Shown here: piece after piece, positions 7,259 through 42,705 of the stretch
How the letters are laid out: each line of letters begins with the position of its first letter
How positions within the stretch are numbered: position 1 is the first letter of the stretch
Sequence record: MT939241.1
Direction: 5' to 3' (one strand)
Length of the DNA: 64,000 bases
Source of the DNA: Enterococcus phage 9183
Made by a program: the position numbers and the translations under genes
The notes under the pieces: generated by a model
What the model saw: only the letters and a program-made list of their open reading frames with translations
Databases searched by the model: none
Told to the model about the DNA's origin: nothing

Positions 7259-7353
7259 CATAATATGTTTTTAACTCTCTTAAATGAGACCTTATGCAAC
7301 ATTCTTTGATGAAATAGAACAAAATATTCGTATAGAAAGAGAAGGTAAACTGT

Positions 7354-7545
7354 ATGAAAAATTTTAGTGCAGCCATGAAACGCGAATTTAATTATTTGAT
7401 GAAGAATAGCAAACTTAGTGATTGGGCAAATAATAATTTTACTCCTTGGCAAATTGAAAAATTATATGAGGCTCGTGAAGCAAAAATTGATGGAGAAAAG
7501 ACAGCAAGTGGAATGGAGGCTATTATTAAACATGGAAGAAAGTGA
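7354..7545 (+). CDS. Small hypothetical protein
   Basis: ORF with RBS gagaagg. Confidence 0.4.
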   Translation: MKNFSAAMKREFNYLMKNSKLSDWANNNFTPWQIEKLYEAREAKIDGEKTASGMEAIIKHGRK

Positions 7546-8824: not shown

Positions 8825-9364
8825 TTGAATATTGCTGTTTTTATGGGCTCAAGATTTGGAGATAAAGCTATCTATAAAAGAGTGGCTAAGGAGACAGGAC
8901 GTCTTATTGCTGAAAGTGGTAACACTCTCGTTTATGGTGGATCTGTTTCAGGTTTAATGGGCTCAGTCGCTAAAAGTACGAAAAAACATGGAGGAAAAGT
9001 TTTAGGCATTTATCCTAAAGATCATTTTGAAGATGAACTCCCATTATATGACGTTGATGAATTTATTGAGGTTGAAAACATGGATGAAAGAAAACGACTT
9101 TTGATTGATAAAGCCGATACTTATATCATTCTTCCTGGAGGCACAGGAACATTAGAGGAGTTCGCACAATTAGTATGTGAAATGGTAATAGGTCTTACAA
9201 CTTGGAAGACAATTTACATTATGAACACTGATGGATATTACGATGGATTAATTACGCAATTAGTAAGATTCATTGATGATGGCTTTTCTGATTTTGATCA
9301 CCTTAGTGATAACATTTTTGTCGCTGAAGATATTGAAGAAATCTTCAATGACTTGAAAAAATAA
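8825..9364 (+). CDS. LOG-family protein (nucleotide 5'-monophosphate N-glycosidase / 'lysine decarboxylase-like' fold)
   Basis: LOG signature ILPGGTGTLEEF; N-terminus matches the family pattern (VFMGS). Confidence 0.65.
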   Translation: MNIAVFMGSRFGDKAIYKRVAKETGRLIAESGNTLVYGGSVSGLMGSVAKSTKKHGGKVLGIYPKDHFEDELPLYDVDEFIEVENMDERKRLLIDKADTYIILPGGTGTLEEFAQLVCEMVIGLTTWKTIYIMNTDGYYDGLITQLVRFIDDGFSDFDHLSDNIFVAEDIEEIFNDLKK

Positions 9365-9378
9365 TAGGAGGAATTTGA

Positions 9379-10026
9379 ATGAAATTTAAAGAAAAAGATT
9401 TAGTGAGAGTGGATTTAGGTGGAGAAATTAAGCGCGTAGGTAGAATTGATGAATTTGATCCTGAAGATCAGCATTTTCCTTTTGCAATTGATTTTCCTAA
9501 ACGATTAGATGAAGATAATTATTCAAAAGATTGTGGTTGGTACAGTGAATGGGACATTGAAGAAATTAAAAATGAATTGAATGTTTATCTTGCAGGCCCT
9601 TTCTTCTCTGAAAAACAAGTTGAAATCGTTAAAGAATTACGTAAAGCCTTAGAAGAAAATGATACTATTGGCGAAGTTTTTGTTCCTATGGAGCATCAAA
9701 TGAACGATGGTGAATTAGAAGAATTTACTGCTCCTTGGGCACGTGAAGTTGCGAAAAATGATTACATTCATGTTCGTGAAGCTGATATTGTTGTCGCAAT
9801 CGTTGATTTTGATGGTGAAGATATGGATTCAGGAACAGCAGTTGAAATTGGATATGCATATGCATTAGGCAAACCCGTATTTCTATATCACCGAAACGAT
9901 CATAACATTATGGTGAATTTAATGGCGACTGAAGTTGCTCAAGCATATTTCACAGATGCACAACAGGTTAAAGAATATGATTTTAAAGAAATGAAACATA
10001 TTCCTTTTACTGGAAATTATCGTTAA
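9379..10026 (+). CDS. Nucleoside 2-deoxyribosyltransferase family protein (NDT / dNMP N-glycosidase fold) with ~65-aa N-terminal extension
   Basis: VYLAGPFF motif and catalytic-Glu motif GTAVEIGYAYALGKPV, matching the Lactobacillus NDT family. Confidence 0.65.
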   Translation: MKFKEKDLVRVDLGGEIKRVGRIDEFDPEDQHFPFAIDFPKRLDEDNYSKDCGWYSEWDIEEIKNELNVYLAGPFFSEKQVEIVKELRKALEENDTIGEVFVPMEHQMNDGELEEFTAPWAREVAKNDYIHVREADIVVAIVDFDGEDMDSGTAVEIGYAYALGKPVFLYHRNDHNIMVNLMATEVAQAYFTDAQQVKEYDFKEMKHIPFTGNYR

Positions 10027-10029
10027 TGT

Positions 10030-10055
10030 TAGGAGTCTTTTGACTCCTTTCTTTT
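10030..10055 (+). terminator. Intrinsic terminator (aggagtc/gactcct stem plus T-run)
   Basis: read directly. Confidence 0.6.
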
Positions 10056-10074
10056 AAAATAAATCATAATATCG

Positions 10075-10103
10075 TTTACACTAAGATGTGTACTTGATAT
10101 AAT
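10075..10103 (+). promoter_or_regulatory. Consensus phage promoter
   Basis: TTTACA, 17-nt spacer, TGATATAAT. Confidence 0.65.
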
Positions 10104-10142
10104 ATTAAAGTAAAAATTTATAAACGGAAGGAAATTCCAAAT

Positions 10143-10991
10143 ATGAGAGAAAAGGAGACTGGACCATTGATCACAATTGAAGCTCCAATTGGAGCAGGTA
10201 AGTCAACTCTTACCAAACTGTTATCAGATATCCTAGGTTCAACACCCGTCTACGAACCAATCGCAGACAATGAATTGCTTGACAAATTTTATGAAAGTAA
10301 GGAAAAATATGGATTCGTATTTCAAATTAGTATGATCTCCAAACGATTTGACCTTATCAAAAAAGGATTAGTACAACGCAATTCGGTGTTAGATCGATCA
10401 ATTTATGGAGATCGTGTATTCGTTGATCTTTTAGTAAAACGAGGAGAAATTGATCCAATTTCTGCTAAAGTTTATTATGATCTTTTAGATACAATGCTTG
10501 AAGAATTGGAATACATTCCTTCAAAAACACCTGACTTAATGGTGTACATTCATTTGCCACTAGAATTAGAATTAGAACGAATTGAAAAACGTGGGCGCGA
10601 TTTTGAGCAGCTTGACGCCGATCCAGGTTTGCTTGAATATTATACACAACACAATGAAATGTATAATGATTGGTTCATGAAATTTGACAAGTGTCCTAAA
10701 TTGGTGATTGATGCAACGAAATACGATTTCGCCAATAATGAAGAAGATGCTAAAGAAGTTCTAGCTTTAATTCTAGCGAAGCTCGTTGAGGTAGGAGCTT
10801 TATCATTTAAAGAATGCGTAATTGCTTTTTGTAAATTAAACGGAGGAAATCCGAAAGAAACAGCAATTAATGCATATAACGCAGTTCAAACACAAATGAA
10901 TGGTAATTTACCTTACCATGAATTATCGTCAATCTTTGACAATAAATTATTCACAATTGAAGAATTACAAAATTACATTGATCAAAAATAG
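10143..10991 (+). CDS. Deoxynucleoside kinase (dAK/dGK/dCK family)
   Basis: P-loop IEAPIGAGKST; DRS-type motif VLDRSIYGDRVF; lid arginine motif RIEKRGRDFE. Confidence 0.75.
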   Translation: MREKETGPLITIEAPIGAGKSTLTKLLSDILGSTPVYEPIADNELLDKFYESKEKYGFVFQISMISKRFDLIKKGLVQRNSVLDRSIYGDRVFVDLLVKRGEIDPISAKVYYDLLDTMLEELEYIPSKTPDLMVYIHLPLELELERIEKRGRDFEQLDADPGLLEYYTQHNEMYNDWFMKFDKCPKLVIDATKYDFANNEEDAKEVLALILAKLVEVGALSFKECVIAFCKLNGGNPKETAINAYNAVQTQMNGNLPYHELSSIFDNKLFTIEELQNYIDQK

Positions 10992-11014
10992 AAAGAAAGA
11001 AGGAATTTATTTAT

Positions 11015-11779
11015 ATGGAAGCTACAGGACTTAAAGGAATTACTCGTAAAGAGATCTTAGGAAATATTAAAGAATTATTCACCGTTTCTTATTACAAAGA
11101 AGGCTTATCGAATTGGATGCCAATTACTAAGGTAGCAGCTTTAATTGGTTTTGCAATTATCATTGGAACAGGCCTACCACATGGTTTCGCTATTACGAAT
11201 ATCATTTCGATCATTTCAGGCTTAATTGGTTACACGTGTGTTTTAGCTATCACAAATGGCAAACGAATTAATGGTTTACTTGGTTTCATTTCTGCAATTG
11301 GTATCGGAGGAATGGCAATTCATGCTGGAAACCCAGCTGATGCAGTGATGCAGCTTGCTTATCTTCTTGCTCTTGACATTCCTGTGATTGTCTTTGGTCA
11401 CCGTTGGACAAATGCAAAAATCAAGACGTTTGATAAAGGCGCATTAAAGATCATTTTAATCGTAGGCGTGATCGGTTTTGCGGCAATGTACTCAATGGAT
11501 GCATTCTGGCTACACACTCCGCGTCCTATCTTAGACGCTTTCGGAGCCACGATTGGTTTCATTGGATCTGCATTAATGCTAGGTAAATATTCTACACAAT
11601 ATTTCTTCTGGAATTTCCAAGGAATTATGAGTATTGCTCTATGGGGTATGACAGCAATGCAAGGCGACGCCAACTGGGTGTTATTCGCAACTTATATGAT
11701 GTACTTGATGAACTCAATGATCGGTGCATTCCATTCTCCTTGGTCTGAAGCACGTAAACAAAAACATTTAGAAAAATAA
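11015..11779 (+). CDS. pnuC: PnuC-family membrane transporter (nicotinamide riboside / deoxynucleoside-type)
   Basis: ~7 predicted TM helices; 254 aa; W-N-...-W block; sits in an operon with deoxynucleoside kinase and NDT. Confidence 0.5.
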   Translation: MEATGLKGITRKEILGNIKELFTVSYYKEGLSNWMPITKVAALIGFAIIIGTGLPHGFAITNIISIISGLIGYTCVLAITNGKRINGLLGFISAIGIGGMAIHAGNPADAVMQLAYLLALDIPVIVFGHRWTNAKIKTFDKGALKIILIVGVIGFAAMYSMDAFWLHTPRPILDAFGATIGFIGSALMLGKYSTQYFFWNFQGIMSIALWGMTAMQGDANWVLFATYMMYLMNSMIGAFHSPWSEARKQKHLEK

Positions 11780-27702: not shown

Positions 27703-27881
27703 AAAAATATATTGGAGGAAATTAAAATGAAAAAATATCAAACTAAAGAACAAGAAATGTTAAACAAGGTGAAAACTGTATCAAAATTGGAGAGTTTATC
27801 TCCAAAAGAAAAGGTTGCTATCATGAAATTTTATGAAAATAAACATTTAAACATGACAACCAATTTTTAATCGTTTTTATT

Positions 27882-27912
27882 AAGGTACTCAATTGAGTAC
27901 CTTATTTTTTTT
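27882..27912 (+). terminator. Intrinsic terminator (aaggtactcaattgagtacctt plus T9)
   Basis: read directly. Confidence 0.7.
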
Positions 27913-27944: not shown

Positions 27945-27973
27945 TTTACAATGTCGACTTAGCTTGATATAAT
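27945..27973 (+). promoter_or_regulatory. Consensus phage promoter heading the nucleotide-modification operon
   Basis: TTTACA, 17-nt spacer, TGATATAAT. Confidence 0.65.
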
Positions 27974-28003
27974 ATGATCGTAAATAAATAAAGGAGGAAA
28001 CAA

Positions 28004-28522
28004 ATGAGTATTAATATTGTTTTAGATGGTCCTAAAGCATGTGGAAAAAGCACAATTGCGAATATGATCATTAATGAATTAGGAAATTGGAAATATATTC
28101 ATTCGGATTCACAAACGAAAAATGATTTAGAATATCATTTAGATCTTTTAAATCAAGGTGAAAATACGGTATTAGATCGTTTTTCATTCGGTGAGGTAAT
28201 TTATTCGAAAGTATATGATCGTAAATGTAAACTTACGCCTAGTGAATTTTTGAAGACAGTGACTAGAGAAAATACGATTTACGTCGTTCTTTACTCAAGC
28301 TCAATGATTCTTTTAGAAGAAAGAATAGTAAGGCGTGGAAGAAAAACTGAAGACGAAGAATTAAGTCTCGTTTCGTCTAGCAACAGTTTATTCATTAGGT
28401 GTGCTACTTGGATGCAAGATCAACCTTACTCAGTAAGAAAAAGATACTTAACTTTTGACGTAGCAAAATACACCGCTGAAGAAATCTTTGAAAAGATAAA
28501 AGAAAAAATGGAGGAATTTTAA
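28004..28522 (+). CDS. dNMP kinase, thymidylate-kinase-like P-loop
   Basis: VLDGPKACGKST P-loop; VLDRF motif; ~170 aa. Confidence 0.6.
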   Translation: MSINIVLDGPKACGKSTIANMIINELGNWKYIHSDSQTKNDLEYHLDLLNQGENTVLDRFSFGEVIYSKVYDRKCKLTPSEFLKTVTRENTIYVVLYSSSMILLEERIVRRGRKTEDEELSLVSSSNSLFIRCATWMQDQPYSVRKRYLTFDVAKYTAEEIFEKIKEKMEEF

Positions 28523-29356
28523 ATGCAATCATTTGATAATTTAAATGCAGCTTGGGCATGGTTCGCAACAAAAGCTTTAACAGGAAAAAGAGTTGCGGGC
28601 ACAACCGAATTAAATAATGTATCTTTCACGCTTGAAAATATTAATGAAAATTTACTTACAATTCGTGAAAACTTTTCATTATCATATTATTTAGGAGAAG
28701 GAATTTGGTATGGAGCAGGCTCAAATTCTATGGAGTTCATTTCAAGATTTGGAAAAATTTGGGAAAAATTAAGTGATGATGGTGTTACAAATGAAAGTGC
28801 CTATGGATATATTCTAAAGAAAAAATATGGCTTTGATCAAATTGAAAAAATGGTTGAACTTTTAAGTAAAGATCCAAACAGTCGTCGCGCAGTGATGAAC
28901 ATTAATTTCGCTCGTAAAAATGTAATTGAAACGAATGATGAACAATGCACTATTGCTTTGCAGCTTTTGCTTCGTGATGGTGAGTTAAATATGACAGGAA
29001 TTATGCGTTCAAATGATTTATGGACGGGAACACCGTATGATATTTTCTACTTCACGGAAATTCAAAAATATATCGCTAATCGTTTAGGTGTTCAATATGG
29101 AACTTATACTCATTTCGTTACTTCATTGCATATTTATGATCGTGATAAAACGAAAGTAAGTAAATCGATTTTGAATTACTTAAATGATGAAAAAGTTGAT
29201 GTTACTATTGATGGTCAACTTTTATTAGAAAGCGCACCTGACTTATATAAGATAATAGGTAAGATTATAGATCCTAAAGAAGCCAAGAAAAAAGCAATTG
29301 AATTAGCAAAAATAAGAAATATCGTTGGAGGTAAAGACATTGAAAATCAAAATTAA
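28523..29356 (+). CDS. Thymidylate-synthase-fold pyrimidine hydroxymethylase / methylase homolog (dCMP- or dUMP-hydroxymethylase-like)
   Basis: RRAVMN; nucleophile block EQCTIALQLL; MRSND; SLHIYDRD; Asp in PYDIF where ThyA has Asn (PFNIA). Confidence 0.65.
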   Translation: MQSFDNLNAAWAWFATKALTGKRVAGTTELNNVSFTLENINENLLTIRENFSLSYYLGEGIWYGAGSNSMEFISRFGKIWEKLSDDGVTNESAYGYILKKKYGFDQIEKMVELLSKDPNSRRAVMNINFARKNVIETNDEQCTIALQLLLRDGELNMTGIMRSNDLWTGTPYDIFYFTEIQKYIANRLGVQYGTYTHFVTSLHIYDRDKTKVSKSILNYLNDEKVDVTIDGQLLLESAPDLYKIIGKIIDPKEAKKKAIELAKIRNIVGGKDIENQN

Positions 29357-29756
29357 AATGTTTGAGGATGATCCATTATTTAAACCAAAAAGAGCACATT
29401 ACAATGATGCAGGAGCTGATGTTCGATCAACTGTAGATGCTGTTATCTTACCAGGTCAAACTGTAAAAATTCCATTAGGATTTGGATTGGAATTACCCGA
29501 TGGTTACATGGGTGTAATGATGAGTCGATCAGGCCTCGCCTCTAAAGGTCTTGTTTCACAAAATGCTCCTGTTGACTCAGGTTATAAAGGTCAAGTACAC
29601 GCTATCTTGACAAATACGACAAATTTATCTATTACAATCGATCGCTTTACTCGTGTTGCACAATTAGTGATCGTTCCAATTATGGTGGCAGATTTCGTTG
29701 AAGAATTTGGAAATGAAAGAACTTCCGACGGTTTTGGAAGCACAGGTATTAAATAA
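29334..29756 (+). CDS. dut: dUTPase-family protein (canonical length)
   Basis: motifs AGADV, RSGLASKG, VDSGYKGQV, SDGFGSTG. Confidence 0.75.
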   Translation, partial: KTLKIKIKMFEDDPLFKPKRAHYNDAGADVRSTVDAVILPGQTVKIPLGFGLELPDGYMGVMMSRSGLASKGLVSQNAPVDSGYKGQVHAILTNTTNLSITIDRFTRVAQLVIVPIMVADFVEEFGNERTSDGFGSTGIK

Positions 29757-30100
29757 TGATACTTGTCTTTGATTTAGATGGAACGATTTGTGAGGAGAAA
29801 CCGAAAGGTACTCCTTACGCCGCTTATGCGGACGTTCAACCAAAAAGAAAAATGATTGAAAAGATTAAAGAATATCATGATGCAGGTCATAAAATCATTA
29901 TTTATACTGCTCGTCATATGGTTTCTACCAATGGTGATTTAAAAATGATTGAGGAACGTGTTGGTAAAATCACTCGCAATTGGTTAGAAAAAAATAATGT
30001 TCCTTATGATGAATTAATTTTTGGTAAACCATATGGGGATATGTACATTGATGATAAAGCAATGCAGCTTGATCAATTCTTATTGGAGGAAATGCTATGA
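29756..30100 (+). CDS. Small HAD-superfamily phosphatase
   Basis: DLDGT motif I; T/S motif II; GKPYGDMYIDDKA motifs III/IV. Confidence 0.6.
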   Translation: MILVFDLDGTICEEKPKGTPYAAYADVQPKRKMIEKIKEYHDAGHKIIIYTARHMVSTNGDLKMIEERVGKITRNWLEKNNVPYDELIFGKPYGDMYIDDKAMQLDQFLLEEML

Positions 30101-31731
30101 TTAATAATATCGCTCTTATTCCTGCAGCAGGTAGAGGAACGCGGATGAAATCAGTCACGGATAAATATCCAAAGGCAATGATTCCACATTTAGGAAAACC
30201 AATTATAGGCCACCAAATTGAATATTTGATAAAAGAAGGCTTTGATAAGGTAGTTATCGTTGTAGGTTATCAGAAAGACATTCTAATGCAATACGTGATT
30301 AAAAATTATGCGGATAAAATTCGTATTTTATTCGCAAATCAAGACGAATTAGATGGACTTGCGACAGCGATTCTTGAAGGAATCAACGCCTTAAACGAAA
30401 AAGACTTATTATTATCAAATCTCACAATTATTCTAGGAGACATTTTACCTCAAGAAGAAATGCCTTATTTTAATGGAGAAAGTTTCATTTGCTATAAAGA
30501 GGTTGATGACTGGCAACGTTGGTGCATGGTTAAAGAACTTTATTCAGGTCGTTTATGTTTTTATGATAAACCAATTGATAAGCCAAACACCAATAAAGCT
30601 TTAATGGGAATTTACATGTTTAATGATATCGATCTATTAAAAGAAAGCATCGAACATATCAAAGAAAAAAATATTCGAATCAATGGGGAATTTCAATTAA
30701 GCTCTGCAATGAATATCTATAATGAACATGTTAACATTAATTTGAAAAAATATGAAAAATTCATTGACTTCGGTCAAGCTGAAGACATTAGTGCCGCAAG
30801 AAAAAATGCTGCTCGTTACTTCAATGATATTTTAATTGAAGATGAGGTAGTAACAAAAAGAAGCACTGATAAAAGTAAAATGTACGACGAATCAATGTGG
30901 TACCAATTAGCCAAAAATTACTTAGGTGATTATTTACCTGAATGTTATGGCATGACAAAAGAAAATGATGGATATAAAATGAGTCGCATTAAGCTGCCTT
31001 CTCTCCAAGAACAATTCGTCTTTGGAACATTAAGTAGAGTAGAAGCTTACCAATTGATGATTGACTTAATGAATTATTTCAAAGACACGAAAAAATACGG
31101 GACTAAGCGCCCAAATTTGATTAAAGCAAATCAAGATATGTTTATTAATAAGACAAGAGAACGTATTGAAAAAATCAAAAATATGTTCGATGAAAAATAT
31201 TATGTAATTAATGGAGAAATTAAAGAAAATCCAATTTTTATATTTGAAGAAAAAATCGTTCCTCGTTTAGAGGAAATTATTGCCGATGATAATTATGCCG
31301 CAATGATTCACGGTGATTTATTCTTTGGAAATATGATGTACGATCCAAAAGGAGAAGATGGGCAACGTTTGAAAATCATTGATCCTCGTGGCAAATATGG
31401 AGAAGATAATCGTCTTATGGGTGATATGCGATATGATTATGCTAAATTAAATCATTCAATTTCAGGATATTATGATTTCATTATTAATGGGCTTTATTAT
31501 TTGGAAGATAATGGAACTGTGATCAATTATAACTTTTACGATAGTGAAAAGCAGGTAGAAGTACAAGGTTTATTTGAAGATTTACTTTCATTGTCTCATA
31601 TGAAAAAGAAAGATATTGATATGATCACGGGTATCTTGTTCCTATCGATGATTCCGCTTCACAAAGAGAATAAAAATAATCAAATCATTCAATTTGCACA
31701 AGCAATTAAATTTTTAGAATTAGGAGCATGA
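30097..31731 (+). CDS. Bifunctional sugar-phosphate nucleotidyltransferase (N-terminal) / APH-ChoK-fold small-molecule kinase (C-terminal)
   Basis: N-terminus LIPAAGRGTRMKS...GKP (GlmU/RmlA/LicC-type NTase); C-terminus IHGDLFFGNMMYD...IIDPRG (HGDxxxxN catalytic loop plus D-x-R/G). Confidence 0.6.
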   Translation: MINNIALIPAAGRGTRMKSVTDKYPKAMIPHLGKPIIGHQIEYLIKEGFDKVVIVVGYQKDILMQYVIKNYADKIRILFANQDELDGLATAILEGINALNEKDLLLSNLTIILGDILPQEEMPYFNGESFICYKEVDDWQRWCMVKELYSGRLCFYDKPIDKPNTNKALMGIYMFNDIDLLKESIEHIKEKNIRINGEFQLSSAMNIYNEHVNINLKKYEKFIDFGQAEDISAARKNAARYFNDILIEDEVVTKRSTDKSKMYDESMWYQLAKNYLGDYLPECYGMTKENDGYKMSRIKLPSLQEQFVFGTLSRVEAYQLMIDLMNYFKDTKKYGTKRPNLIKANQDMFINKTRERIEKIKNMFDEKYYVINGEIKENPIFIFEEKIVPRLEEIIADDNYAAMIHGDLFFGNMMYDPKGEDGQRLKIIDPRGKYGEDNRLMGDMRYDYAKLNHSISGYYDFIINGLYYLEDNGTVINYNFYDSEKQVEVQGLFEDLLSLSHMKKKDIDMITGILFLSMIPLHKENKNNQIIQFAQAIKFLELGA

Positions 31732-31735
31732 TAAA

Positions 31736-32956
31736 ATGGGTAAAACAATCGTTTTTGGAAAATTAGGAAGAACTATACGATTCAACCGCAAGAATTGGAA
31801 ATCAGGTGCTGGCAATAATGAGCCGGCAACATTGCTTTCAGCTTTAGCTAATGCAAATCCTCAAAATAAATATATTATCATTGGTAGAAGTGATTTCTCT
31901 CGTTGTGATGAAGAAACGATAAACTATTGGTTTAAATATGATAATGTTGAAGATGCTTGGGCAGACTATGACAAGAAAAAACATGATCTTTATAATTTCC
32001 TTTATGAAAAATATAAAGATACTCATATTGATTATGGGATTATCAATGGAGGTATCACAGGTAACACAAACTCTCCAGGCTGCTTTATTAAATATGATAA
32101 AGATGGAAATTCAACTGGAGAAAAATTACGTGTGTTAGATGCTATGGCTATTTACGTTGGCCCAATCATTTGCTTATTTAACAAACGAAAAATAAAATGG
32201 GTAAACTTCCATGCAGATGCTCGTCAGTTTCCTATTAAAGGTAAAGATGTTTTCCAACAGCCTGAACTTACAATTGGGACAAGAAATATTGATCGAGTGA
32301 AAATGACATATAAAGATTATGATGATCAAACTGATATTCCTAGAGAAATGAGTATGAGATATGGAATGACTGAAGCTCTCCTTTTACTTGACCCTGAATA
32401 TAAAGATTTTCCTAAAGTTGAAAAAGATATTAAAGTAGGATTCTTCTTCCATAATTATGAAAAAATCAAAAATCGTACTCATGAATTACTTAATTATATT
32501 GATCAGTTTGGAGAAGATGAAATTTCAGTTTATGGCAAATGGAAAGGTTTTGAGGATCAACCTAAATTTAAAGGTGAATGTACCTTTGATGAGATGCAAG
32601 AAATTTTACCTCGGATCAAATATACACTTTGCTATCCTATCGTTAAAGGTGATATTAGTGCAAAATGGATTGAAGCTGTAAGAGCTGGTATTATTCCTTT
32701 CTTCGATGAAAAATATGATGAAAATCGTTTGCTCGTTGATATTCACAACGTTCCTTCATTCTTATATGTATCTTCACCTGAAGATATGAAAGAAAAAATT
32801 AACCTGCTTGAAAAAGATCCTCACATTTACAAATCTATTCTTGATTTATTGACTGATCGTTTAGAATATCTTAAAGAAAATGTTCTTTCAATTTATGAAT
32901 GTGAAATTGAGGATGCCATTGAAGGCGGCGTTGAAAGATACGATAAAATTTATTAA
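31736..32956 (+). CDS. Putative GT-B glycosyltransferase, T4 beta-glucosyltransferase-like C-terminal motif
   Basis: KWIEAVRAGIIPFFDEKYD resembles the GT-B EAxAxGxP(V/I) motif and the T4 BGT block RVWETMASDAVMLIDEEFD (recalled from memory); ~400 aa. Confidence 0.4.
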   Translation: MGKTIVFGKLGRTIRFNRKNWKSGAGNNEPATLLSALANANPQNKYIIIGRSDFSRCDEETINYWFKYDNVEDAWADYDKKKHDLYNFLYEKYKDTHIDYGIINGGITGNTNSPGCFIKYDKDGNSTGEKLRVLDAMAIYVGPIICLFNKRKIKWVNFHADARQFPIKGKDVFQQPELTIGTRNIDRVKMTYKDYDDQTDIPREMSMRYGMTEALLLLDPEYKDFPKVEKDIKVGFFFHNYEKIKNRTHELLNYIDQFGEDEISVYGKWKGFEDQPKFKGECTFDEMQEILPRIKYTLCYPIVKGDISAKWIEAVRAGIIPFFDEKYDENRLLVDIHNVPSFLYVSSPEDMKEKINLLEKDPHIYKSILDLLTDRLEYLKENVLSIYECEIEDAIEGGVERYDKIY

Positions 32957-32966
32957 AAATAAAAAT

Positions 32967-32997
32967 CACGGGCGAATAAGTTTACTATTTGCCCGTG
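32967..32997 (+). other. 7-bp-stem hairpin (cacgggc/gcccgtg) with the next promoter's -35 (TTTACT) in its 17-nt loop; no T-run
   Basis: read directly. Confidence 0.5.
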
Positions 32998-33009
32998 TAA
33001 TGATATAAT
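32981..33009 (+). promoter_or_regulatory. Promoter variant (TTTACT, 17 nt spacer, TGATATAAT)
   Basis: read directly. Confidence 0.55.
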
Positions 33010-33042
33010 ATAAAAGTAAAAATTATAAAGGATGGTATTTAT

Positions 33043-33567
33043 ATGAGTACGACTTTTAAAGTTAAAAAACACGAAGATAATATCATTCACCTTTATTCTG
33101 ATGGAGGCTGTCGTTCAACGGCAAAGAAAGGTGAAAAAATTAAAGACACCGATAAATGTGCTTACGCTTTCTTCTTAAAACAAGGAGGACACGAAAAACT
33201 TGATGGATTTGCTTCTTATGGAAAGACAAATAATAATCAAGAAATAATGGGATTGCTCATGGGGCTAAGAGCAATTAAACGTCCTGAGTTTCCAGTTATT
33301 GCTTATCTTGATAGCGCTTACGTTGTTAACTGTCTTCAAGCAGGTTGGTGGCGTAAGTGGGAGCAAAATGGGTGGACGAAGAAAGGTGGCCTTGCAAATG
33401 CTGAAGAATGGAAAGCATTAATTAAAGAACTTAAAAGATTTCCATTTTTCTCCATTGAAAAGGTGAAAGGTCATTCAGGTAATGCTGATTATAATGATCT
33501 AGTCGACAAGCATTTAAACAAATTAATGGATGAACTTGAGGAGAAAGGTAAAGGTAATGTATTATGA
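33043..33567 (+). CDS. rnhA: Ribonuclease H
   Basis: RNase HI fold motifs LYSDGG, NQEIMG, YLDSAYV. Confidence 0.65.
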   Translation: MSTTFKVKKHEDNIIHLYSDGGCRSTAKKGEKIKDTDKCAYAFFLKQGGHEKLDGFASYGKTNNNQEIMGLLMGLRAIKRPEFPVIAYLDSAYVVNCLQAGWWRKWEQNGWTKKGGLANAEEWKALIKELKRFPFFSIEKVKGHSGNADYNDLVDKHLNKLMDELEEKGKGNVL

Positions 33568-34535
33568 TTTATTTTGGTAAAACTCGTATTAACCTATTTT
33601 CATATGACGCGTCAGCAAAGCCAAGATTAGATACTGAAGAAATATTAAAAGGAATGGGTTTCACACCTTTAATTGTGTCAGCTTTTGAAGAGGTAAAAGA
33701 TGTAAAATTACGCGTCGAACAAGAACTGGCAAACATAAAAGAAAATGATATCATAATCGTTCAATATCCTTCTTTTAGTTGGAGAGAATACGAAATAGCT
33801 TTTAATGAACAAGCACATAAACAAGGAGCTAAAGTGTTTGCTATCGTTCACGATCTGGAGACATTAAGATGGCCTGGTGATACGTCAGACTTTGAAGTAT
33901 TAAATACTTTTGATGCTATTTCATTGCCTTCATATAAAGCTGCAAGCTTTTTAATGAAGAAAGGTTTGAAAACGCCTTTTTACTTCCAGTTCTTTTGGGA
34001 TTATTTATGTGAAAACAATGGGCAAATGTTAGACTTGAATGCCGATATTGTGTATGCAGGAAATATCATTGAACGTAAAACAGAATTTCTTAATGATGTA
34101 AAATTTCCAATACGCCTTTATGGTGATAATATCGAAAATAGAACATTTAGGGAAAATATCACATATGAAGGTAGACGAACGAATGAGGAATTAGTTTTGG
34201 AAATAGGAGGAAATATTGGCTTATCATGGGATAGTAATAATTATTTAGAATATGCAAAATATAATCTTTCATATAAGCCTGCTATGTATTTAGCCGCAAA
34301 CTGTCCTATTATCGTTCATAATAAAACGAACATAGCAAGAATAGTTGAAGCTTATAATTTAGGTAAAGTTATAGGTGATTTAAAATATGATACAGTTTTA
34401 AAAGCTGTCGTTGATATTAAGAAAGAACGTGAAAGATATGCAGAAGCAACTCTTGCATTTGGACAAAATTTAAGAGATGGAAGATGTTTGAAAAATTTAA
34501 TAGAAAGGATGTTGACTTCACAAGATGCATATTGA
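33564..34535 (+). CDS. Hypothetical protein, possible second GT-B-like glycosyltransferase
   Basis: weak GT-B-like C-terminal block YLAANCPIIVHN...EAYNLGKVI; ~320 aa. Confidence 0.3.
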   Translation: MIYFGKTRINLFSYDASAKPRLDTEEILKGMGFTPLIVSAFEEVKDVKLRVEQELANIKENDIIIVQYPSFSWREYEIAFNEQAHKQGAKVFAIVHDLETLRWPGDTSDFEVLNTFDAISLPSYKAASFLMKKGLKTPFYFQFFWDYLCENNGQMLDLNADIVYAGNIIERKTEFLNDVKFPIRLYGDNIENRTFRENITYEGRRTNEELVLEIGGNIGLSWDSNNYLEYAKYNLSYKPAMYLAANCPIIVHNKTNIARIVEAYNLGKVIGDLKYDTVLKAVVDIKKERERYAEATLAFGQNLRDGRCLKNLIERMLTSQDAY

Positions 34536-34779
34536 AATGTATATTTTTGATCAATGTTTCGTCGATCATGCAAATTATTTAGAGACAAGAGTTGGAGAAG
34601 GTTATAAGGTTTATCAATTCCAACAGTCAGGTGGAAATCCTCCATTTAGTCCTATTTATTCTATTAAATTTAGAAAGTTGCTTAAATATAAATGGTACAA
34701 TAATTTTCATGGTTGGTTATTTAAATATAGGAGAAAACGTTTTGTTGAAAAAGAATTAGGGAGGAAATACGTTGGCTAA
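34525..34779 (+). CDS. Small hypothetical protein
   Basis: ORF fills the gap, coupled to its neighbours. Confidence 0.4.
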   Translation: MHIEMYIFDQCFVDHANYLETRVGEGYKVYQFQQSGGNPPFSPIYSIKFRKLLKYKWYNNFHGWLFKYRRKRFVEKELGRKYVG

Positions 34780-35380
34780 ATTAATCTTCTTTTATGGGGC
34801 AATGAAAAGTGGTAAAAGCATGGAAATTGCTAAGACATATACGAACTACAAAATTAAAGGACAAGATCCAATGGTTTTTAAACCTTCGATCGACACTCGT
34901 GATAAAAACATTAAGTCAAGATTAGGTATTGAAATTCCTTGTGAAGTTATAAAACCTGATGAAGATTTAAATAGGAAAATTTTTATTGATCGATTTTCAC
35001 AAAAATTGCCTCCTGTCGTTTTAATTGACGAGGCGCAATTTTTAAGTGACAAACAGGTTCGTGAATTGGGAGTAATTGTTGATGTAGGCAATATTGACAT
35101 AATTTGCTTTGGTTTAAAAAATGATTTTAAAGGCAAACTATTTGAAGGATCAAAGGCATTAATTGAGGAAGCTGATAAGTTAGTTGAAGTTAAGACATTA
35201 TGTGCTTTTTGTAACCGTAAAGCAACTCATAATCTTTTAACTGAAATTCATGATGATGGAAAAAGATATGCAGTTGACACTTCAGTTGAAGGAAACTTAA
35301 GGATCGGCGACGAAGATTTCTTTCAGTGTTGCCGAAAACATTATTATCAATATTCAACACGCACGCGTGAAATTAAATAG
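34772..35380 (+). CDS. tdk: Thymidine kinase
   Basis: FFYGAMKSGKS P-loop; VLIDEAQF; C-terminal zinc ribbon CAFCN...CCRKH. Confidence 0.8.
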   Translation: MAKLIFFYGAMKSGKSMEIAKTYTNYKIKGQDPMVFKPSIDTRDKNIKSRLGIEIPCEVIKPDEDLNRKIFIDRFSQKLPPVVLIDEAQFLSDKQVRELGVIVDVGNIDIICFGLKNDFKGKLFEGSKALIEEADKLVEVKTLCAFCNRKATHNLLTEIHDDGKRYAVDTSVEGNLRIGDEDFFQCCRKHYYQYSTRTREIK

Positions 35381-35391
35381 GATTTTTAATG

Positions 35392-35420
35392 AAGGTTCGT
35401 TTACATAGCGAACCTTTTTT
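35392..35420 (+). terminator. Intrinsic terminator (aaggttcg/cgaacctt plus T6) whose 9-nt loop is the -35 TTTACA of the next promoter
   Basis: read directly. Confidence 0.7.
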
Positions 35421-35459: not shown

Positions 35460-38400
35460 ATGAGTTGGTTTAGTATTCATAATCATAGTTATTATTCAAA
35501 CTTTCGTCTTCGTGATGCGACGAATGCACCTGAAGATATCATTGATAAAGCGATAGAGTTAGGCTTAACAGGTATCGTTTTGTCTGATCATGAAACTATA
35601 GCGGGAGCACCAAAATTTCTTGATTATGCAAAGAAATTAGAGAAAGAAAATAAATTGCCTGAAGGTTTTAAAGTAGGTGTTGGTAATGAAGCTTACTTAA
35701 TTGATCGAAAATATGAACAAGCAATGATTGATCAAGAAAAAGTTAAGTATTATCATTTTATCATGCTTGCAAAAAATCAAAGAGGATTTGAGTTTTTGAA
35801 AAAGCAAACAGCTTTAGCTTGGTCACACCGCATTTATTCAAGAGGTATGGAACGTGTACCAACATATAAGCAAGATTTGGTTGAATTAATGAAAGAATAT
35901 AAAGGTGACGTTGTTGCTTCAACAGCTTGTATAGGAGGAGAACTACCTCAACTTATTCTTAAATTGGAGGAAGCTACTTTAAATGGAAACGACAACGAAG
36001 TTAAAGAAATCAAACAAGAAATTCACAACTTTATTCATTTTTTGGTTAACACTTTCGGTCATGAAAATGTATTCTTTGAGTTACAACCTTCGTACCAAGA
36101 AGAACAAAAAATCGTAAATAAATGGTTGCCAACGATTGCTGAAGCTTATAAGATTAAATGCATTGTGACAACTGATGCTCATTATCTTACTTTAGCACAA
36201 CAAGAATTTCATAAACAATATCTTCAAGCGTCAGAAGGAGAGCGTGAAGTTGAACAATTTTATGCAACTACTTACATTTTTTCTTATGATGAATTACTTG
36301 AATATTTTGATCAGGAATTGCTTGATGTTTTAGTTGAAAATACAAATATCATTAAAGATATGATAGAGGAAATTAATTATAAACATGAAACCGTTATTCC
36401 AAACAGTCATATTCCTTCGTTTAAACCTAATATGGAAATTATGAAAAAAATCGACGAAGAAAAATATCCAAACATTTATAAGATGATGAACTCAAAAGTT
36501 TTGGAAGATCGTTATTATCATCACAGGGTTATGCAAGGTTTCATTGATAAGAAACAAGAATTTAATGATGAAAATCTTTCAAGAATTGATTTGGAATATA
36601 GTGAACTTGAAGAAATCAGTGAACAGCTTGGACAACCAATGACGTCATATTTCTTAGCCATGACAGAGTTCGTTGATATTATGTGGGAGCATTCGCTTGT
36701 TGGAGTAGGTCGTGGATCAGCTGTATGTTATTACACGAATTACTTATTGGATATCGTTCAATTAAACCCAATTAAATATGATTTACCATATTGGCGATTC
36801 TTATCACGTGAATATGTTGGAGAGTTTCCTGATATTGACGTTGATGCACAAGGATCACAACGAGCTTCAATCATTGAAGGCGTTAAAGAAAGATTTGGTC
36901 ATGAAAATGTATTAAACATTGGAACATACACAACTGAAGGAGCACGAGCTGCATCGCTTACTGCTTGTCGCGCGTTAGGACTTGATCCTGACACAGCACA
37001 AAACATTACAAATATGATTCCATCGGATAAAGGTAATCCATGGCCATTACATGATGCATTCTTTGGTAATGAAGAAGAAAATCGTAAACCTGATAAAGCA
37101 TTCATTAATGAAGTAAATAATTATGAAGGTTTACAAGAATTGATGCTTCAATCACAAGGATTAGTATCAGGTCGAGGACAACACGCAAGTGGAGTTGTTG
37201 TCTTTCCAAATGGATATACGTCAATGAACACAATGATGAAAACAAGTAATGGTTTACCTATTACACAATGGGATGCAGGTACTACTGAAGCTGCAGGCGG
37301 TATTAAGTATGATTTCTTATCAATTAATGCTCTTGATCGAATTAAAAGTGCGATGGATATGTTATTGAAAGATGGAAAAATTGAATGGCAAGGATCATTA
37401 AGAGATACATTTAATAAATATTTCCATCCTGACGTACTTGAAATGGATGCAGATAAAATGTATGATATGTTATTCGATGGTGAAATCATTTCAGCATTTC
37501 AGTTTGAAGCAAAAACGGGTCGTCAAGCATTAGAAAAAATTAATGCACGAAACTTTAATCAATTAGTCGCAGCAAATTCATTGATGCGCTTATCATGCGA
37601 AGGTGAACAGCCAATTGATAAATTCATTCGTTATAAAAATGATTTAAGTAATTGGGATAAAGACATGGATGAATATGGTTTGACTGAAGATGAAAAGAAA
37701 GTGATGCATGAATTGCTTGATGCAAGATATGGGGTTTGTGAAACACAGGAAGCAATTATGCAAATTGCAATGCATGAAAAAGTAGCAAAATATAATTTAA
37801 GAGAAGCAAAGGGGTTACGTAAAGCATCAGCTAAGAAGAAACCTGAAATTCAAGAAAAACAAAAGAAACTGTTCTTTGAAAAAGGAACAGCGAATGGTAC
37901 GTCAACAAACTTACTAAATTATATTTGGAATGAATGTTACGTTCCAACTTTTGGTTATTCTTTTAGTGCGCCTCACGTTGCAGCTTACACAATGATCTTG
38001 ATGATTGAAATGAACATTGCTTATCGTTATGGAGTTCATTATTGGAAGGCAGCTTGCTTAAATGTTGATGCAGGTATTTTAGATGGTGAAGTAGAAGGCG
38101 GAACAAGATATGGTAAAATTGCTAAAGCTTTATCAGGTTTTCGTGAAGATGTTGTTCCTCCGTCAGTCAATAAAAGTGATATTGGGTTTACACCCGATTC
38201 AAAAACGGGTAAAATTATGTATGGTTTAAAGCCAATCGTCGGTATGAATGGAAAACTCGCAAGACAAATCATTGAAAATCGACCTTATTCGAACATTAAA
38301 GATTTCATTGAAAAGAATCTTGAAAATGGTGATTTGACAAAAGGTAAAATGGTTAACTTAATTAAGAGTGGAATTTTTGATGAACTTTACGCAAATCGTA

Positions 38401-39314
38401 GAGAATTAATGATTAAGTTTGTTGAATACGTTGAACCTCTTAAAGAAAAATTGACGACCGCGGTTATTCCAAAAATAATTGATCGCGTGCCTGAAACTTA
38501 TAAAGAAGGCGTAACTGCTTACATGTTTCTTAAGGAAGTAAAAGGTAAGAAAAATCATACACAATATTCGGATCATTTCTTTGATAATTATGAAAAATTA
38601 TGTAAAGAAAAAGTAACGAAAAAATATCCAAATTCATATTATTATGATGATAATGGTGAATTAGTAATTGAAGTAAAAGTACTTGAAAAAGTAGTAAAAG
38701 ATAAGATGGAACCAATTAAAGAATGGCTTAAGACTGAAGAGGCTTTACGTGCTGAAGCTGCATTAAGACGAACAGCGTTTTGGAATAAGTATTGTCAAGG
38801 AACGATTTCTCATTGGGAAATGGAATCAATTACGTTCTACATTTCAAATCACGAACTTAATGAATATCCACTTGATTCATACTTTAACATTGCGTCATTT
38901 AAAGATATGCCAAGAGAACCTGAAATTATTGGTTGGTCAAATGGGAGAGGAAGAAAATGGCCTCAATTAAAAACGGAGGTCATTGCGGGAACCGTCATTG
39001 ATACTTTACCTAAGAAGGGTATCGTCACAATTATTACACAAACTGGAGTCGTCGATGTTCGTGTAGGAAAAGGAAAGTATCAACATTATAATAAGAAAAT
39101 AATGGTTGGCGAAGGTAAAGAACGAGTAAACATTGATGATACTTGGTGGAAACGTGGAAATATGATTGTCGTCGTTGGTTATCGTCGTGAAAATGATTTT
39201 TATGCTAATGCAAGAAATAGTTCATATCAACATTCAGTGATGCTGATCAAAGGTCACGATGGTAAGAAAGTATTCGTTCAACAGGAAAAGAAAAAAATAG
39301 GAGAAGATTATTAA
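35460..39314 (+). CDS. dnaE: DNA polymerase III alpha subunit (DnaE-type) with N-terminal PHP domain
   Basis: PHP motif SIHNHSYYS...VLSDHETIAG; 1284 aa; polymerase core region conserved. Confidence 0.75.
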   Translation: MSWFSIHNHSYYSNFRLRDATNAPEDIIDKAIELGLTGIVLSDHETIAGAPKFLDYAKKLEKENKLPEGFKVGVGNEAYLIDRKYEQAMIDQEKVKYYHFIMLAKNQRGFEFLKKQTALAWSHRIYSRGMERVPTYKQDLVELMKEYKGDVVASTACIGGELPQLILKLEEATLNGNDNEVKEIKQEIHNFIHFLVNTFGHENVFFELQPSYQEEQKIVNKWLPTIAEAYKIKCIVTTDAHYLTLAQQEFHKQYLQASEGEREVEQFYATTYIFSYDELLEYFDQELLDVLVENTNIIKDMIEEINYKHETVIPNSHIPSFKPNMEIMKKIDEEKYPNIYKMMNSKVLEDRYYHHRVMQGFIDKKQEFNDENLSRIDLEYSELEEISEQLGQPMTSYFLAMTEFVDIMWEHSLVGVGRGSAVCYYTNYLLDIVQLNPIKYDLPYWRFLSREYVGEFPDIDVDAQGSQRASIIEGVKERFGHENVLNIGTYTTEGARAASLTACRALGLDPDTAQNITNMIPSDKGNPWPLHDAFFGNEEENRKPDKAFINEVNNYEGLQELMLQSQGLVSGRGQHASGVVVFPNGYTSMNTMMKTSNGLPITQWDAGTTEAAGGIKYDFLSINALDRIKSAMDMLLKDGKIEWQGSLRDTFNKYFHPDVLEMDADKMYDMLFDGEIISAFQFEAKTGRQALEKINARNFNQLVAANSLMRLSCEGEQPIDKFIRYKNDLSNWDKDMDEYGLTEDEKKVMHELLDARYGVCETQEAIMQIAMHEKVAKYNLREAKGLRKASAKKKPEIQEKQKKLFFEKGTANGTSTNLLNYIWNECYVPTFGYSFSAPHVAAYTMILMIEMNIAYRYGVHYWKAACLNVDAGILDGEVEGGTRYGKIAKALSGFREDVVPPSVNKSDIGFTPDSKTGKIMYGLKPIVGMNGKLARQIIENRPYSNIKDFIEKNLENGDLTKGKMVNLIKSGIFDELYANRRELMIKFVEYVEPLKEKLTTAVIPKIIDRVPETYKEGVTAYMFLKEVKGKKNHTQYSDHFFDNYEKLCKEKVTKKYPNSYYYDDNGELVIEVKVLEKVVKDKMEPIKEWLKTEEALRAEAALRRTAFWNKYCQGTISHWEMESITFYISNHELNEYPLDSYFNIASFKDMPREPEIIGWSNGRGRKWPQLKTEVIAGTVIDTLPKKGIVTIITQTGVVDVRVGKGKYQHYNKKIMVGEGKERVNIDDTWWKRGNMIVVVGYRRENDFYANARNSSYQHSVMLIKGHDGKKVFVQQEKKKIGEDY

Positions 39315-41743: not shown

Positions 41744-41962
41744 ATGAATTTTAGTCAAGCTTTTGATACCGTCAGTCAACGAGAAGGAACGTTTATGCGT
41801 TTGCCTCAATGGAAAGAGGACGTAAAAATTCGTGCTCAATTTCCTGATGAATACAGTAAAATGAGTCATCCTTACCTATATGTGGAATCGCGTTTTGGTA
41901 ATGTACCTTGGATTCCAACACAGGTTGAAATGTTTTCAAATAAATGGGAGGTAGGAATTTAA
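41744..41962 (+). CDS. Small hypothetical protein
   Basis: ORF with RBS aggaga. Confidence 0.45.
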   Translation: MNFSQAFDTVSQREGTFMRLPQWKEDVKIRAQFPDEYSKMSHPYLYVESRFGNVPWIPTQVEMFSNKWEVGI

Positions 41963-42705
41963 TGAGAAAATTTGAAGTAGTAAGTGCCTATAAGGACAAA
42001 GAAATTAATTTGCCAATGCGAGCAACTCCTCATTCAGCAGGTTATGATTTTGAGGCTGCAGAAGATATTGAAATCCCTTCATTCTTCGTGGGTGTTCGTC
42101 AGTTGATGACATATATTGAGGATAGAATCGATCAATCAAATAATCATCCAATGGATGAACGAACATACGAAAGGTTGATGAGATATGAAGAAGAAACTGA
42201 TGAAATATCTAGACACCTATCTGAATATGAACAGCTTCCTGTTGCATATGTTAAAGAGCTTTTATCGTTAATCGATGATATTCTCGACGATGATGAAACT
42301 TCATGCTTAGAAGCTGTTGAAGATTTCCGTAAAAAATTAAAACCTACGTTAGTTCCTACAGGAATTAAAGCTTGCATGCATAAAGATGAATTTTTAGGAT
42401 TATACAATCGTTCTTCAAATCCATTAAAACGAATGCTCGTATTGGCAAATGGCGTTGGAGTTATTGATAGTGACTATTACGATAATGAAGACAACGAAGG
42501 CCATATCATGTTCCAATTTATTAATCTAGGATTCCTTCCTGTAAAGATTAAGAAAGGCGAACGAATTGGGCAAGGTATCTTCCAAAAATTCTTAACAGTT
42601 GAGACAGTTGAAGAAACGCGTGAAGATACAAGAAGCGGTGGTTTTGGTTCAACAGGTGTTGACGACACTATTCCTGGAGAAATGTTTGAAAAAGAGGTGC
42701 TTTAA
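41962..42705 (+). CDS. dUTPase / dCTP-deaminase-family paralog with a ~130-aa insertion between motifs 2 and 3
   Basis: motifs SAGYDF, GVIDSDYYD, RSGGFGSTG; large insert ~70..200. Confidence 0.6.
   Translation: MRKFEVVSAYKDKEINLPMRATPHSAGYDFEAAEDIEIPSFFVGVRQLMTYIEDRIDQSNNHPMDERTYERLMRYEEETDEISRHLSEYEQLPVAYVKELLSLIDDILDDDETSCLEAVEDFRKKLKPTLVPTGIKACMHKDEFLGLYNRSSNPLKRMLVLANGVGVIDSDYYDNEDNEGHIMFQFINLGFLPVKIKKGERIGQGIFQKFLTVETVEETREDTRSGGFGSTGVDDTIPGEMFEKEVL

Follow-up and report, generated by a model that had tools for sequence, protein, structure and literature searches.

Phage T4 uses the dCMP hydroxymethylase gp42, the kinase gp1, the dCTPase gp56 and alpha- and beta-glucosyltransferases to provide 5-hydroxymethyl-dCMP (5hm-dCMP) before replication and to glycosylate its DNA after replication, drawing on host UDP-glucose and encoding no sugar-activation enzymes. 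The arabinosyl-5-hydroxycytosine (Afh) pathway of phages RB69, DLP3 and HY126 is encoded in a cluster where genes for a Tmk-like kinase, a ThyA homologue, a HAD phosphatase, a nucleotidyltransferase/kinase fusion and GT-B transferases lie beside the DNA polymerase gene (PMC13326640). DNA of the Enterococcus faecalis phages VPE25 and VFW is resistant to bisulfite, EcoRI and MspI and is cut by PvuRts1I, from which its authors inferred glycosylated cytosines (Duerkop et al. 2016, PMC4999554). Here we describe a related unit at positions 27945-35380 of a 64,000-nucleotide stretch of DNA from Enterococcus phage 9183 (MT939241.1). This whole stretch is termed the window and all coordinates are positions in it. 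The unit codes, in order, for a P-loop kinase, a ThyA homologue, a dUTPase-family enzyme, a HAD phosphatase, a nucleotidyltransferase/kinase fusion, the glycosyltransferase GT1, RNase H, a second glycosyltransferase (GT2), a small protein and thymidine kinase (Table 1). It probably directs hypermodification of cytosine in the phage DNA against host restriction, the base being 5-hydroxymethylcytosine (5hmC) and the attached sugar being activated by enzymes of the phage.

The T-even logic of the locus, in which a hydroxymethylated nucleotide is made and the DNA is then glycosylated, had been proposed in an earlier sequence-only reading of the same DNA and is supported by the residue signature, the homologies and the folds presented below. 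The accompanying view that a self-contained pathway of this kind was undescribed in a Gram-positive phage was overstated. Glycosylation of Gram-positive phage DNA is already described through the 2016 results on VPE25 and VFW, phage-encoded synthesis of an activated nucleoside diphosphate (NDP) sugar is known in RB69, DLP3 and HY126, and the same module is present in the Pseudoalteromonas phage vB_Psh_XG4 (hereafter XG4). The study of enterococcal type IV restriction by Bullen et al. (2024) was considered as evidence of modified DNA and put aside as not relevant, its phage phi47 being unmodified.

The predicted sugar-activation pair and its sugar

The unit is 94.6% identical over its full length to the corresponding region of Enterococcus phage Planchet (OX422066.1), and the window aligns with the Planchet genome nearly end to end. 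Planchet (Andrewesvirinae, genus Denvervirus) is an 86-kb lytic siphophage that infects vancomycin-resistant E. faecium with a latent period of roughly 10 min. The phage of the window is likewise a siphophage and falls in the same genus. Its genes for the same proteins are labelled nucleotide kinase, "thymidylate synthase/pyrimidine hydroxymethylase", dUTPase, "polynucleotide kinase", three "glycosyltransferases", RNase H-like and thymidine kinase. VPE25 and VFW are also members of this subfamily and share with the window unit the gene order and the expected purpose, protection from restriction; their orthologues are 47-87% identical to the window proteins. The order in VPE25 is kinase, ThyA homologue (55% identity), dUTPase (77%), b-gt, RNase HI (87%), GT2 equivalent (48%, annotated as "nucleotide sugar synthetase-like protein"), thymidine kinase and the PolIII alpha polymerase. 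The difference lies in the center of the unit. VPE25 and VFW have there a single T4-type b-gt, whose VPE25 product is 42% identical to the T4 beta-glucosyltransferase (BGT), while the HAD, fusion and GT1 genes stand at this place in the window. VPE25 and VFW are devoid of sugar-activation genes and so must use host UDP-glucose, as T4 does; the window unit encodes the HAD and fusion proteins, hereafter the cassette.

The fusion is composed of an amino-terminal NTP_transferase domain (residues 6-237) and a carboxyl-terminal APH-like kinase domain (residues ~308-438), the latter with weak EcKL and fructosamine-kinase Pfam matches at residues 308-438. Both domains of the sugar-1-kinase/nucleotidyltransferase proposed from the sequence are thus present, with their order reversed, the nucleotidyltransferase coming first. 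Full-length relatives (at least 80% coverage, ~25% identity) are found in 245 phage records. They belong nearly all to T4-like (Straboviridae-type) phages of Escherichia, Acinetobacter, Klebsiella and Serratia and include RB69 ORF052c/053c, Lazarus gp78 and a protein of Serratia phage 92A1; identity to RB69 gp52:53 and Lazarus gp78 is 26% (E 5e-19 for Lazarus gp78, 4e-12 for RB69 p052). The family matches of the fusion are scattered among GDP-mannose, dTDP-glucose, UDP-glucose, GlmU and MurU types and point to no single sugar or nucleotide; there are additional LicC-like and choline-kinase-like similarities. The HAD protein carries motif I (DxDGT) as FDLDGT, is 35% identical to RB69 gp51 and to Lazarus gp77, and matches the PDB entries 1xpj (2.7e-18) and 9iqw (3.1e-9), of which the latter is presumably the HY126 phosphatase, judging from its entry series. 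Note that "phosphoheptose isomerase" and "polynucleotide kinase" are widespread labels for the small HAD phosphatases in this family (phrog_1238, RB69p051, Lazarus gp77, PLANC_63) and appear to be propagated misannotations.

The HAD and fusion enzymes of RB69/Lazarus type have been equated with AfhF and AfhE of HY126, whose product is UDP-arabinose. AfhE has two roles, first that of an arabinose-5-phosphate 1-kinase and later that of a UDP-arabinose pyrophosphorylase, and AfhF is the 1,5-bisphosphate 5-phosphatase that acts between these two steps (PMC13326640). The window proteins are true homologues of this pair. The HAD protein is accordingly a relative of AfhF and EcbF-BcbF predicted to be a sugar-bisphosphate phosphatase, and the fusion a predicted AfhE-type bifunctional sugar kinase and NDP-sugar pyrophosphorylase. 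Their homology to characterised Afh enzymes thus supports the earlier proposal that the phage would make its own activated sugar. The resemblance to the Afh phages extends to the Tmk-like kinase, the ThyA homologue, the GT-B transferases and the vicinity of the DNA polymerase gene. The differences concern the base (see below), the isomerase, which Afh phages encode, the Gram-positive host, and the transferases, which are unrelated in sequence: GT4-like in the Afh phages, BGT-fold and Gtf3-like in the window.

The sugar itself is the point at which the closest alternative departs. The pathway would be the same, and the case a subset of the model proposed here, if the cassette yielded UDP-D-arabinofuranose from host arabinose-5-phosphate and the DNA carried arabinosyl-5hmC. 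The sole characterised homologues of the fusion and HAD proteins do produce UDP-arabinose, the homology is full-length, the gene pair is conserved, and the module is also present in the Gram-negative phage XG4. The host of XG4 would produce arabinose-5-phosphate for the synthesis of 3-deoxy-D-manno-octulosonic acid (KDO). To our knowledge, enterococci do not synthesize KDO, so that arabinose-5-phosphate is not an expected metabolite of the host here. Moreover, all described arabinosylating phages have their own arabinose-5-phosphate isomerase gene adjoining the AfhE/AfhF-type genes, although their hosts make arabinose-5-phosphate. A tblastn search with the RB69 and Lazarus enzymes, run over the window, the complete genome of Planchet, 12 related loci and XG4, gave no such gene (nothing at E<1). 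The identity to the characterised enzymes, 25-35%, also speaks against a common product. Arabinose is therefore an unlikely sugar.

A tentative proposal, to which we give somewhat less than even chances, is that the phage DNA contains an undescribed base in which 5hmC is O-linked to a sugar other than glucose and arabinose. The AfhE/AfhF-like pair would then represent a second, isomerase-independent branch of nucleotide-sugar synthesis in phages, coupled to 5hmC and not to 5-hydroxycytosine (5hoC), that is mobile between phages of Gram-positive and Gram-negative bacteria. A ribofuranose, or another pentose or hexose made from a sugar phosphate common in the host, would be compatible with this, and a Gtf3-type GT2 may extend this sugar to a hetero-disaccharide.

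Glycosyltransferases and related loci

GT1 has no Pfam or NCBIfam family match above threshold, the Glyco_trans_1_2 match being sub-threshold. Its predicted structure (pLDDT, the predicted local distance difference test score, 91.6) finds its closest solved fold among GT-B enzymes in T4 BGT, with 13% identity in the structural alignment, which upholds the BGT-like character assigned earlier to this 406-residue protein. BLASTP similarity to the b-gt products of T4 (E 0.09) and VPE25 (E 1.4) is not significant, and a profile search of solved structures with GT1 found nothing. The connection between GT1 and BGT is made only through structure prediction and profile-profile comparison. In sequence only the carboxyl-terminal domain is tied to the BGT family (2e-7 with PLANC_101 of Planchet; hhalign E 1.4e-4), hhalign pairing T4 R269/E272 with GT1 K310/E313, both invariant in the GT1 family. 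The EAxxAGxP motif on which the sequence-only reading relied is real: it reads EAVRAGIIP in GT1, and E313, R316, A317, G318 and P321 are conserved over 23 homologues. A GT1 orthologous to the b-gt product of VPE25 or T4 was considered and ruled out, the pairwise similarity not being significant. The model thus predicts a GT1 that is BGT-like in action, and it is not counted here as a BGT-family member by sequence. From fold, synteny and co-occurrence, GT1 is the predicted DNA 5hmC glycosyltransferase using the NDP-sugar of the cassette.

The third glycosyltransferase of Planchet, PLANC_101 (388 aa), is encoded beside the ligase gene and is a full-length T4 BGT homologue (29% identity, E 4e-34). 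At 7070-7367 of the window a clean deletion of ~1.08 kb relative to Planchet removes this gene, clips the end of the small open reading frame (ORF) upstream and leaves a 3' remnant (Table 1). This phage is a natural BGT-minus variant. VPE25 thus has BGT and GT2, Planchet has BGT, GT1 and GT2, and this phage has GT1 and GT2, a series that fits GT1 and BGT as alternative first-sugar enzymes on 5hmC.

In 12 of 12 related loci the HAD and fusion genes lie side by side. GT1 comes next in nine of the loci compared (window, Planchet, L007, L009, L011, L012, L014, L015 and L016) and also in XG4. GT2 is found without the cassette in VPE25, and the cassette with GT1 but without GT2 in L011, L012 and L016; GT1 is therefore the cassette's partner. 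The order kinase, ThyA homologue, dUTPase, HAD and fusion is repeated in the metagenomic phages L011, L012, L014 and L020. In XG4 (PP712099.1, an unannotated record; L021:103-6577) a gp42-type hydroxymethylase, HAD, fusion and a GT1 homologue are encoded in direct succession. The hydroxymethylase is 50% identical to T4 gp42 and has the D169/D177 signature discussed below, and identities to the window proteins are 40% (HAD), 29% (fusion) and 27% (GT1 homologue). This phage has a Gram-negative marine host and a 158-kb genome, and the same four-gene core is there likewise without the isomerase. After the core come a second putative glycosyltransferase, of a different kind, and a C5-cytosine DNA methyltransferase. 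No characterisation of XG4 was found in the literature. A T4 alpha-glucosyltransferase (AGT)-family protein (Pfam AGT 3e-32) is encoded two genes past the HAD-fusion pair in L019 (L019:12044-13255; IMGVR_UViG_3300030037_000008, a 120-kb metagenomic phage), and the cassette is therefore combined there with a different DNA glycosyltransferase. By these homologies, XG4 and L019 each link the cassette to predicted DNA glycosylation independently.

Other loci depart further from the window. In the ~100-kb PolIII-alpha phages L007 (5758-11200), L009 (5602-11215) and L015, the HAD and fusion genes are followed by a gene for a 219-230-residue protein with weak HipA_C-like kinase matches and by GT1. 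They are preceded by a gene for a 483-519-residue protein without family match, and no ThyA homologue is found within 10 kb; the modified base of these phages may be different. At L017:5063-6058 (- strand), a gene fusing a thymidylate-kinase-like P-loop domain to a uracil-DNA-glycosylase-superfamily domain adjoins a HAD-fusion pair without GT1.

The 323-residue GT2 has no Pfam match. It is a member of the Gtf3/Nss family by both sequence and fold (~20% identity), and T4 BGT ranks only 40th in its fold search, so that of the earlier description of a second BGT-like protein the glycosyltransferase fold stands and the likeness to BGT does not. Few homologues of GT2 were found (2, then 7, from a word-indexed search), so that the alignment behind its model (pLDDT 86) is shallow. 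GT2 is a genuine glycosyltransferase. The streptococcal Gtf3/Nss enzymes (PDB 3qkw, 3rhz) are second-step glucosyltransferases of serine-rich-repeat adhesins, which add a sugar onto an attached sugar. This behavior suggests that GT2 adds a second sugar to give a disaccharide; its acceptor would presumably be a DNA-borne sugar and not a glycoprotein, as it is for the streptococcal enzymes.

The distribution of GT1 also bears on whether it uses the sugar of the cassette at all. GT1 could be a glucosyltransferase acting with host UDP-glucose, the HAD and fusion proteins serving GT2 or a non-DNA target. Its closest fold is indeed a UDP-glucose enzyme, and both Planchet and L016 have a BGT-type gene besides GT1, in the manner of the T4 alpha- and beta-glucosyltransferases. 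Yet GT1 occurs only beside the HAD-fusion pair (nine loci, at least three phage lineages), GT2 exists without the pair in VPE25 and the pair also without GT2, and this phage has lost the BGT-type gene and kept GT1. A UDP-glucose-dependent GT1 is thus improbable.

Still less credible is a role of the cassette and the two transferases in modifying a polymer of the cell envelope (teichoic acid or Epa) or a protein, for instance to block superinfection. Gtf3 does act on serine-rich adhesins, EcbF-BcbF phosphatases belong to capsule loci, and the LicC-like and choline-kinase-like similarities of the fusion point in the same direction. The genes lie, however, among those for nucleotide metabolism and replication, just where the sister phages have their DNA b-gt. 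The top fold match of GT1 is a DNA glucosyltransferase, other phages pair the cassette with gp42 or an AGT-family enzyme, and a lytic cycle with a latent period of ~10 min leaves little time for a change of the envelope. This alternative is very improbable.

The predicted modified base and the proposed pathway

The best solved relative of the ThyA homologue is the CMP 5-hydroxymethylase MilA (3.5e-28), ahead of ordinary thymidylate synthases (~1e-12) and T4 gp42 (3e-7). Residues that discriminate between enzymes of this fold are known, in E. coli ThyA numbering: N177D shifts the enzyme to dCMP as substrate and L143D/E accompanies non-methyl products, while D169N is the mark of the flavin-dependent 5-hydroxy-dCMP synthases of RB69-like phages, Asn being found in every 5hoC synthase tested (PMC13326640). 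An acidic residue at the place of Leu143 lets water in, and the product is then hydroxymethyl and not methyl. The window protein was aligned with T4 gp42, RB69 gp48, Lazarus gp76, its VPE25 counterpart and two orthologues from metagenomes. It has the thymidylate synthase fold with the catalytic Cys142 (C146 in E. coli), which is invariant across the alignment. An Asp is found three residues ahead of this Cys (L143D; N-D-E-Q-C in the window protein, S-D-F-M-C in T4). N177D is present, GTPYD of the window protein being aligned to GFRND of T4 gp42, to the MilA motif and to PFN of thymidylate synthases. D169 is kept, in MRSND of both the window protein and T4 gp42, against MRSQN in RB69 gp48 and Lazarus gp76. 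To judge from the catalytic Cys, L143D, MRSND and GTPYD together, the protein is not a plain thymidylate synthase, and it is not a 5hoC synthase either. By this residue signature it is a predicted dCMP hydroxymethylase and the base is cytosine, which bears out the ThyA-fold hydroxymethylase of the sequence-only reading and names its base. An identity as 5hoC synthase, prompted by the Afh-like neighbours, was considered and ruled out by the retained D169.

The least probable alternative, with hardly any weight left, is that the ThyA homologue is an ordinary thymidylate synthase or an RB69 gp48-like 5-hydroxy-dCMP synthase, the sugar being attached otherwise or not to 5hmC: it can call upon the thymidylate synthase family matches and the 25-28% identity to RB69 gp48 and Lazarus gp76 (23% to T4 gp42), but N177D and L143D speak against dUMP methylation, D169 is kept, the NCBIfam thymidylate synthase scores are all far under their cut-offs, and the DNA of the sister phages behaves as glycosyl-5hmC DNA.

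The P-loop kinase gene lies directly upstream of the ThyA homologue gene also in VPE25, L011, L012, L014 and L020. Its product is not a homologue of T4 gp1 and is predicted to be a 5hm-dCMP kinase, a functional analogue of gp1. The dUTPase ORF is open from 29325, with GGAGG 7 nucleotides ahead of a TTG start at 29340, and its product scores 100.3 bits against NCBIfam dut, just below the cut-off of 103. It is possibly, on speculation, also a dCTPase; this candidate has the trimeric dUTPase fold and is thus not of gp56 type. A second dUTPase-family gene is present at 41944-42705 of the window; its 253-residue product, 97% identical to PLANC_49, has an insertion of ~90 residues that splits the motifs. 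The dCTPase that is otherwise missing might be one of these two proteins. The polymerase differs as well, being PolIII alpha here and of family B in T4.

From gene content, diagnostic residues, folds, homologies, synteny and co-occurrence, all shown by the analysis, we infer the catalytic steps below, DNA as the target of both transferases, and the order in which the sugars are added. Before replication, the ThyA homologue would convert dCMP to 5hm-dCMP, as its residue signature indicates, and the P-loop kinase with the host NDP kinase would raise this to 5hm-dCTP. The dUTPase-family enzyme would clear dUTP, and possibly dCTP, from the pool, and the phage PolIII alpha would incorporate 5hmC into DNA. 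In parallel, by homology with the Afh enzymes, the kinase domain of the fusion would phosphorylate a host sugar phosphate at C1, the HAD protein would then strip the other phosphate, and the amino-terminal domain of the fusion would join the sugar-1-phosphate to a nucleoside triphosphate, giving an NDP-sugar not available from the host. After replication, GT1 would attach this sugar to the hydroxymethyl group that 5hmC presents in duplex DNA, as suggested by its fold, synteny and co-occurrence, and GT2, to judge from its family, would probably add a second sugar on top. The outcome would be a phage DNA shielded from host restriction.

Several points weigh against this pathway. On the side of the cassette, the kinase domain of the fusion matches its families weakly, and the HAD protein scores 75 bits against TIGR01689 ("capsule biosynthesis phosphatase"), whose cut-off is 162 bits. 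The identity of both proteins to characterised AfhE/AfhF relatives is in the low range given above, and the isomerase search was negative. On the side of the transferases, GT1 meets no curated family threshold and is only weakly connected to BGT in sequence (hhalign probability 53%). A dCTPase, required for full replacement of cytosine, was not identified, and the operon structure derives from consensus scans only. Finally, the Planchet paper is silent on DNA modification, and a full-text literature search gave no such statement for denverviruses.

Organization of the unit and significance

The nine ORFs listed in the sequence-only reading are all found in their places on the + strand, and their domain calls hold in family searches; the list omitted the 84-codon ORF at 34525-34779. 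From terminator to terminator the unit spans 27945-35417. The kinase and ThyA homologue genes abut and GT1 starts 4 nucleotides after the fusion gene. Overlaps of 1-17 nucleotides are found at the ThyA/dUTPase, dUTPase/HAD, HAD/fusion, RNase H/GT2, GT2/small ORF and small ORF/thymidine kinase junctions, and the sole sizeable gap within the unit is the 86 nucleotides at 32957-33042. Of the claim that a single promoter drives these genes, the promoter itself stands. The same promoter type is seen again in the intergenic gaps at 35400 and 39322. A weaker internal site is also present, and in the AT-rich window promoter-like matches are not enriched as a class (80 found, 72 expected); a single operon is therefore plausible but not proven.

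Table 1. Features of the unit and of its surroundings, in window coordinates.
Feature	Position	Strand	Remarks
3' remnant of T4-BGT-type gene, last ~36 codons	7257..7367	+	intact in Planchet
Terminator-like hairpin and T-run	27881..27904	+	closes the upstream unit
Sigma-70-type promoter, TTTACA-17-tgTATAAT, extended -10	27945..27973	+	11/12 positions match
P-loop nucleotide kinase, 172 aa	28004..28522	+	phrog_761 "thymidylate kinase" 1.3e-13; Pfam kinase matches weak
ThyA-fold predicted dCMP 5-hydroxymethylase, 277 aa	28523..29356	+	Pfam Thymidylat_synt 2e-23
Trimeric dUTPase-family enzyme, 138 aa	29340..29756	+	Pfam dUTPase 8e-21
Small HAD phosphatase (AfhF / EcbF-BcbF type, predicted), 114 aa	29756..30100	+	TIGR01689 4.6e-21
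Nucleotidyltransferase/kinase fusion (AfhE type, predicted), 544 aa	30097..31731	+	NTP_transferase residues 6-237 (6e-18)
GT1, GT-B glycosyltransferase, T4-BGT-like fold, 406 aa	31736..32956	+	predicted structure
Weaker internal promoter-like site, TG present	32981..33009	+	10/12 positions match; in the sole sizeable intergenic gap
RNase H, replication gene inside the unit	33043..33567	+	Pfam 5e-17; VPE25 has RNase H at the same position
GT2, Gtf3/Nss-family glycosyltransferase, 323 aa	33564..34535	+	membership by sequence and fold
Small ORF, 84 aa	34525..34779	+	no match in family searches; conserved in Planchet (PLANC_58)
Thymidine kinase	34772..35380	+	Pfam TK 6e-33
Terminator-like hairpin ending the unit	35391..35417	+	overlaps the PolIII alpha promoter
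PolIII alpha	35460-39314		directly after the unit

Outside the unit, a nucleotide-salvage block at 8825-11779 codes, by the Planchet labels, for a DprA-like/LOG-like protein, a nucleoside 2-deoxyribosyltransferase, a nucleoside/nucleotide kinase and a PnuC-type nicotinamide mononucleotide transporter. Such a block is unusual in a phage and may be relevant to precursor supply.

Two papers on the glycosylation of phage DNA contain no discussion of Gram-positive phages with this cassette. A BGT-fold transferase combined with a 5hmC-type synthase and with an AfhE/AfhF-like pair for sugar activation that lacks the isomerase was not found in the searchable literature. The same literature gave no account of the occurrence of this combination in Gram-positive phages, of its exchange with b-gt in the manner of a cassette or of the natural allelic series. 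Cocktails under development against vancomycin-resistant E. faecium make use of denverviruses such as Planchet. It depends on the chemistry of the DNA of these phages which restriction, type IV and CRISPR defences are escaped or triggered, and how readily they are sequenced and engineered. A new nucleotide sugar and a new DNA glycosyltransferase may in addition become tools for 5hmC labelling. VPE25, Planchet and this phage form a natural allelic series for the value of each sugar against enterococcal defences. If the tentative proposal of a second, isomerase-independent branch is true, the cassette would pair with whichever DNA glycosyltransferase is at hand, a BGT-fold enzyme here and an AGT-type enzyme in L019. 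If the proposed pathway as a whole is true, phage DNA glycosylation would be modular, the base step (5hmC or 5hoC), the sugar cassette and the transferase being recombinable.

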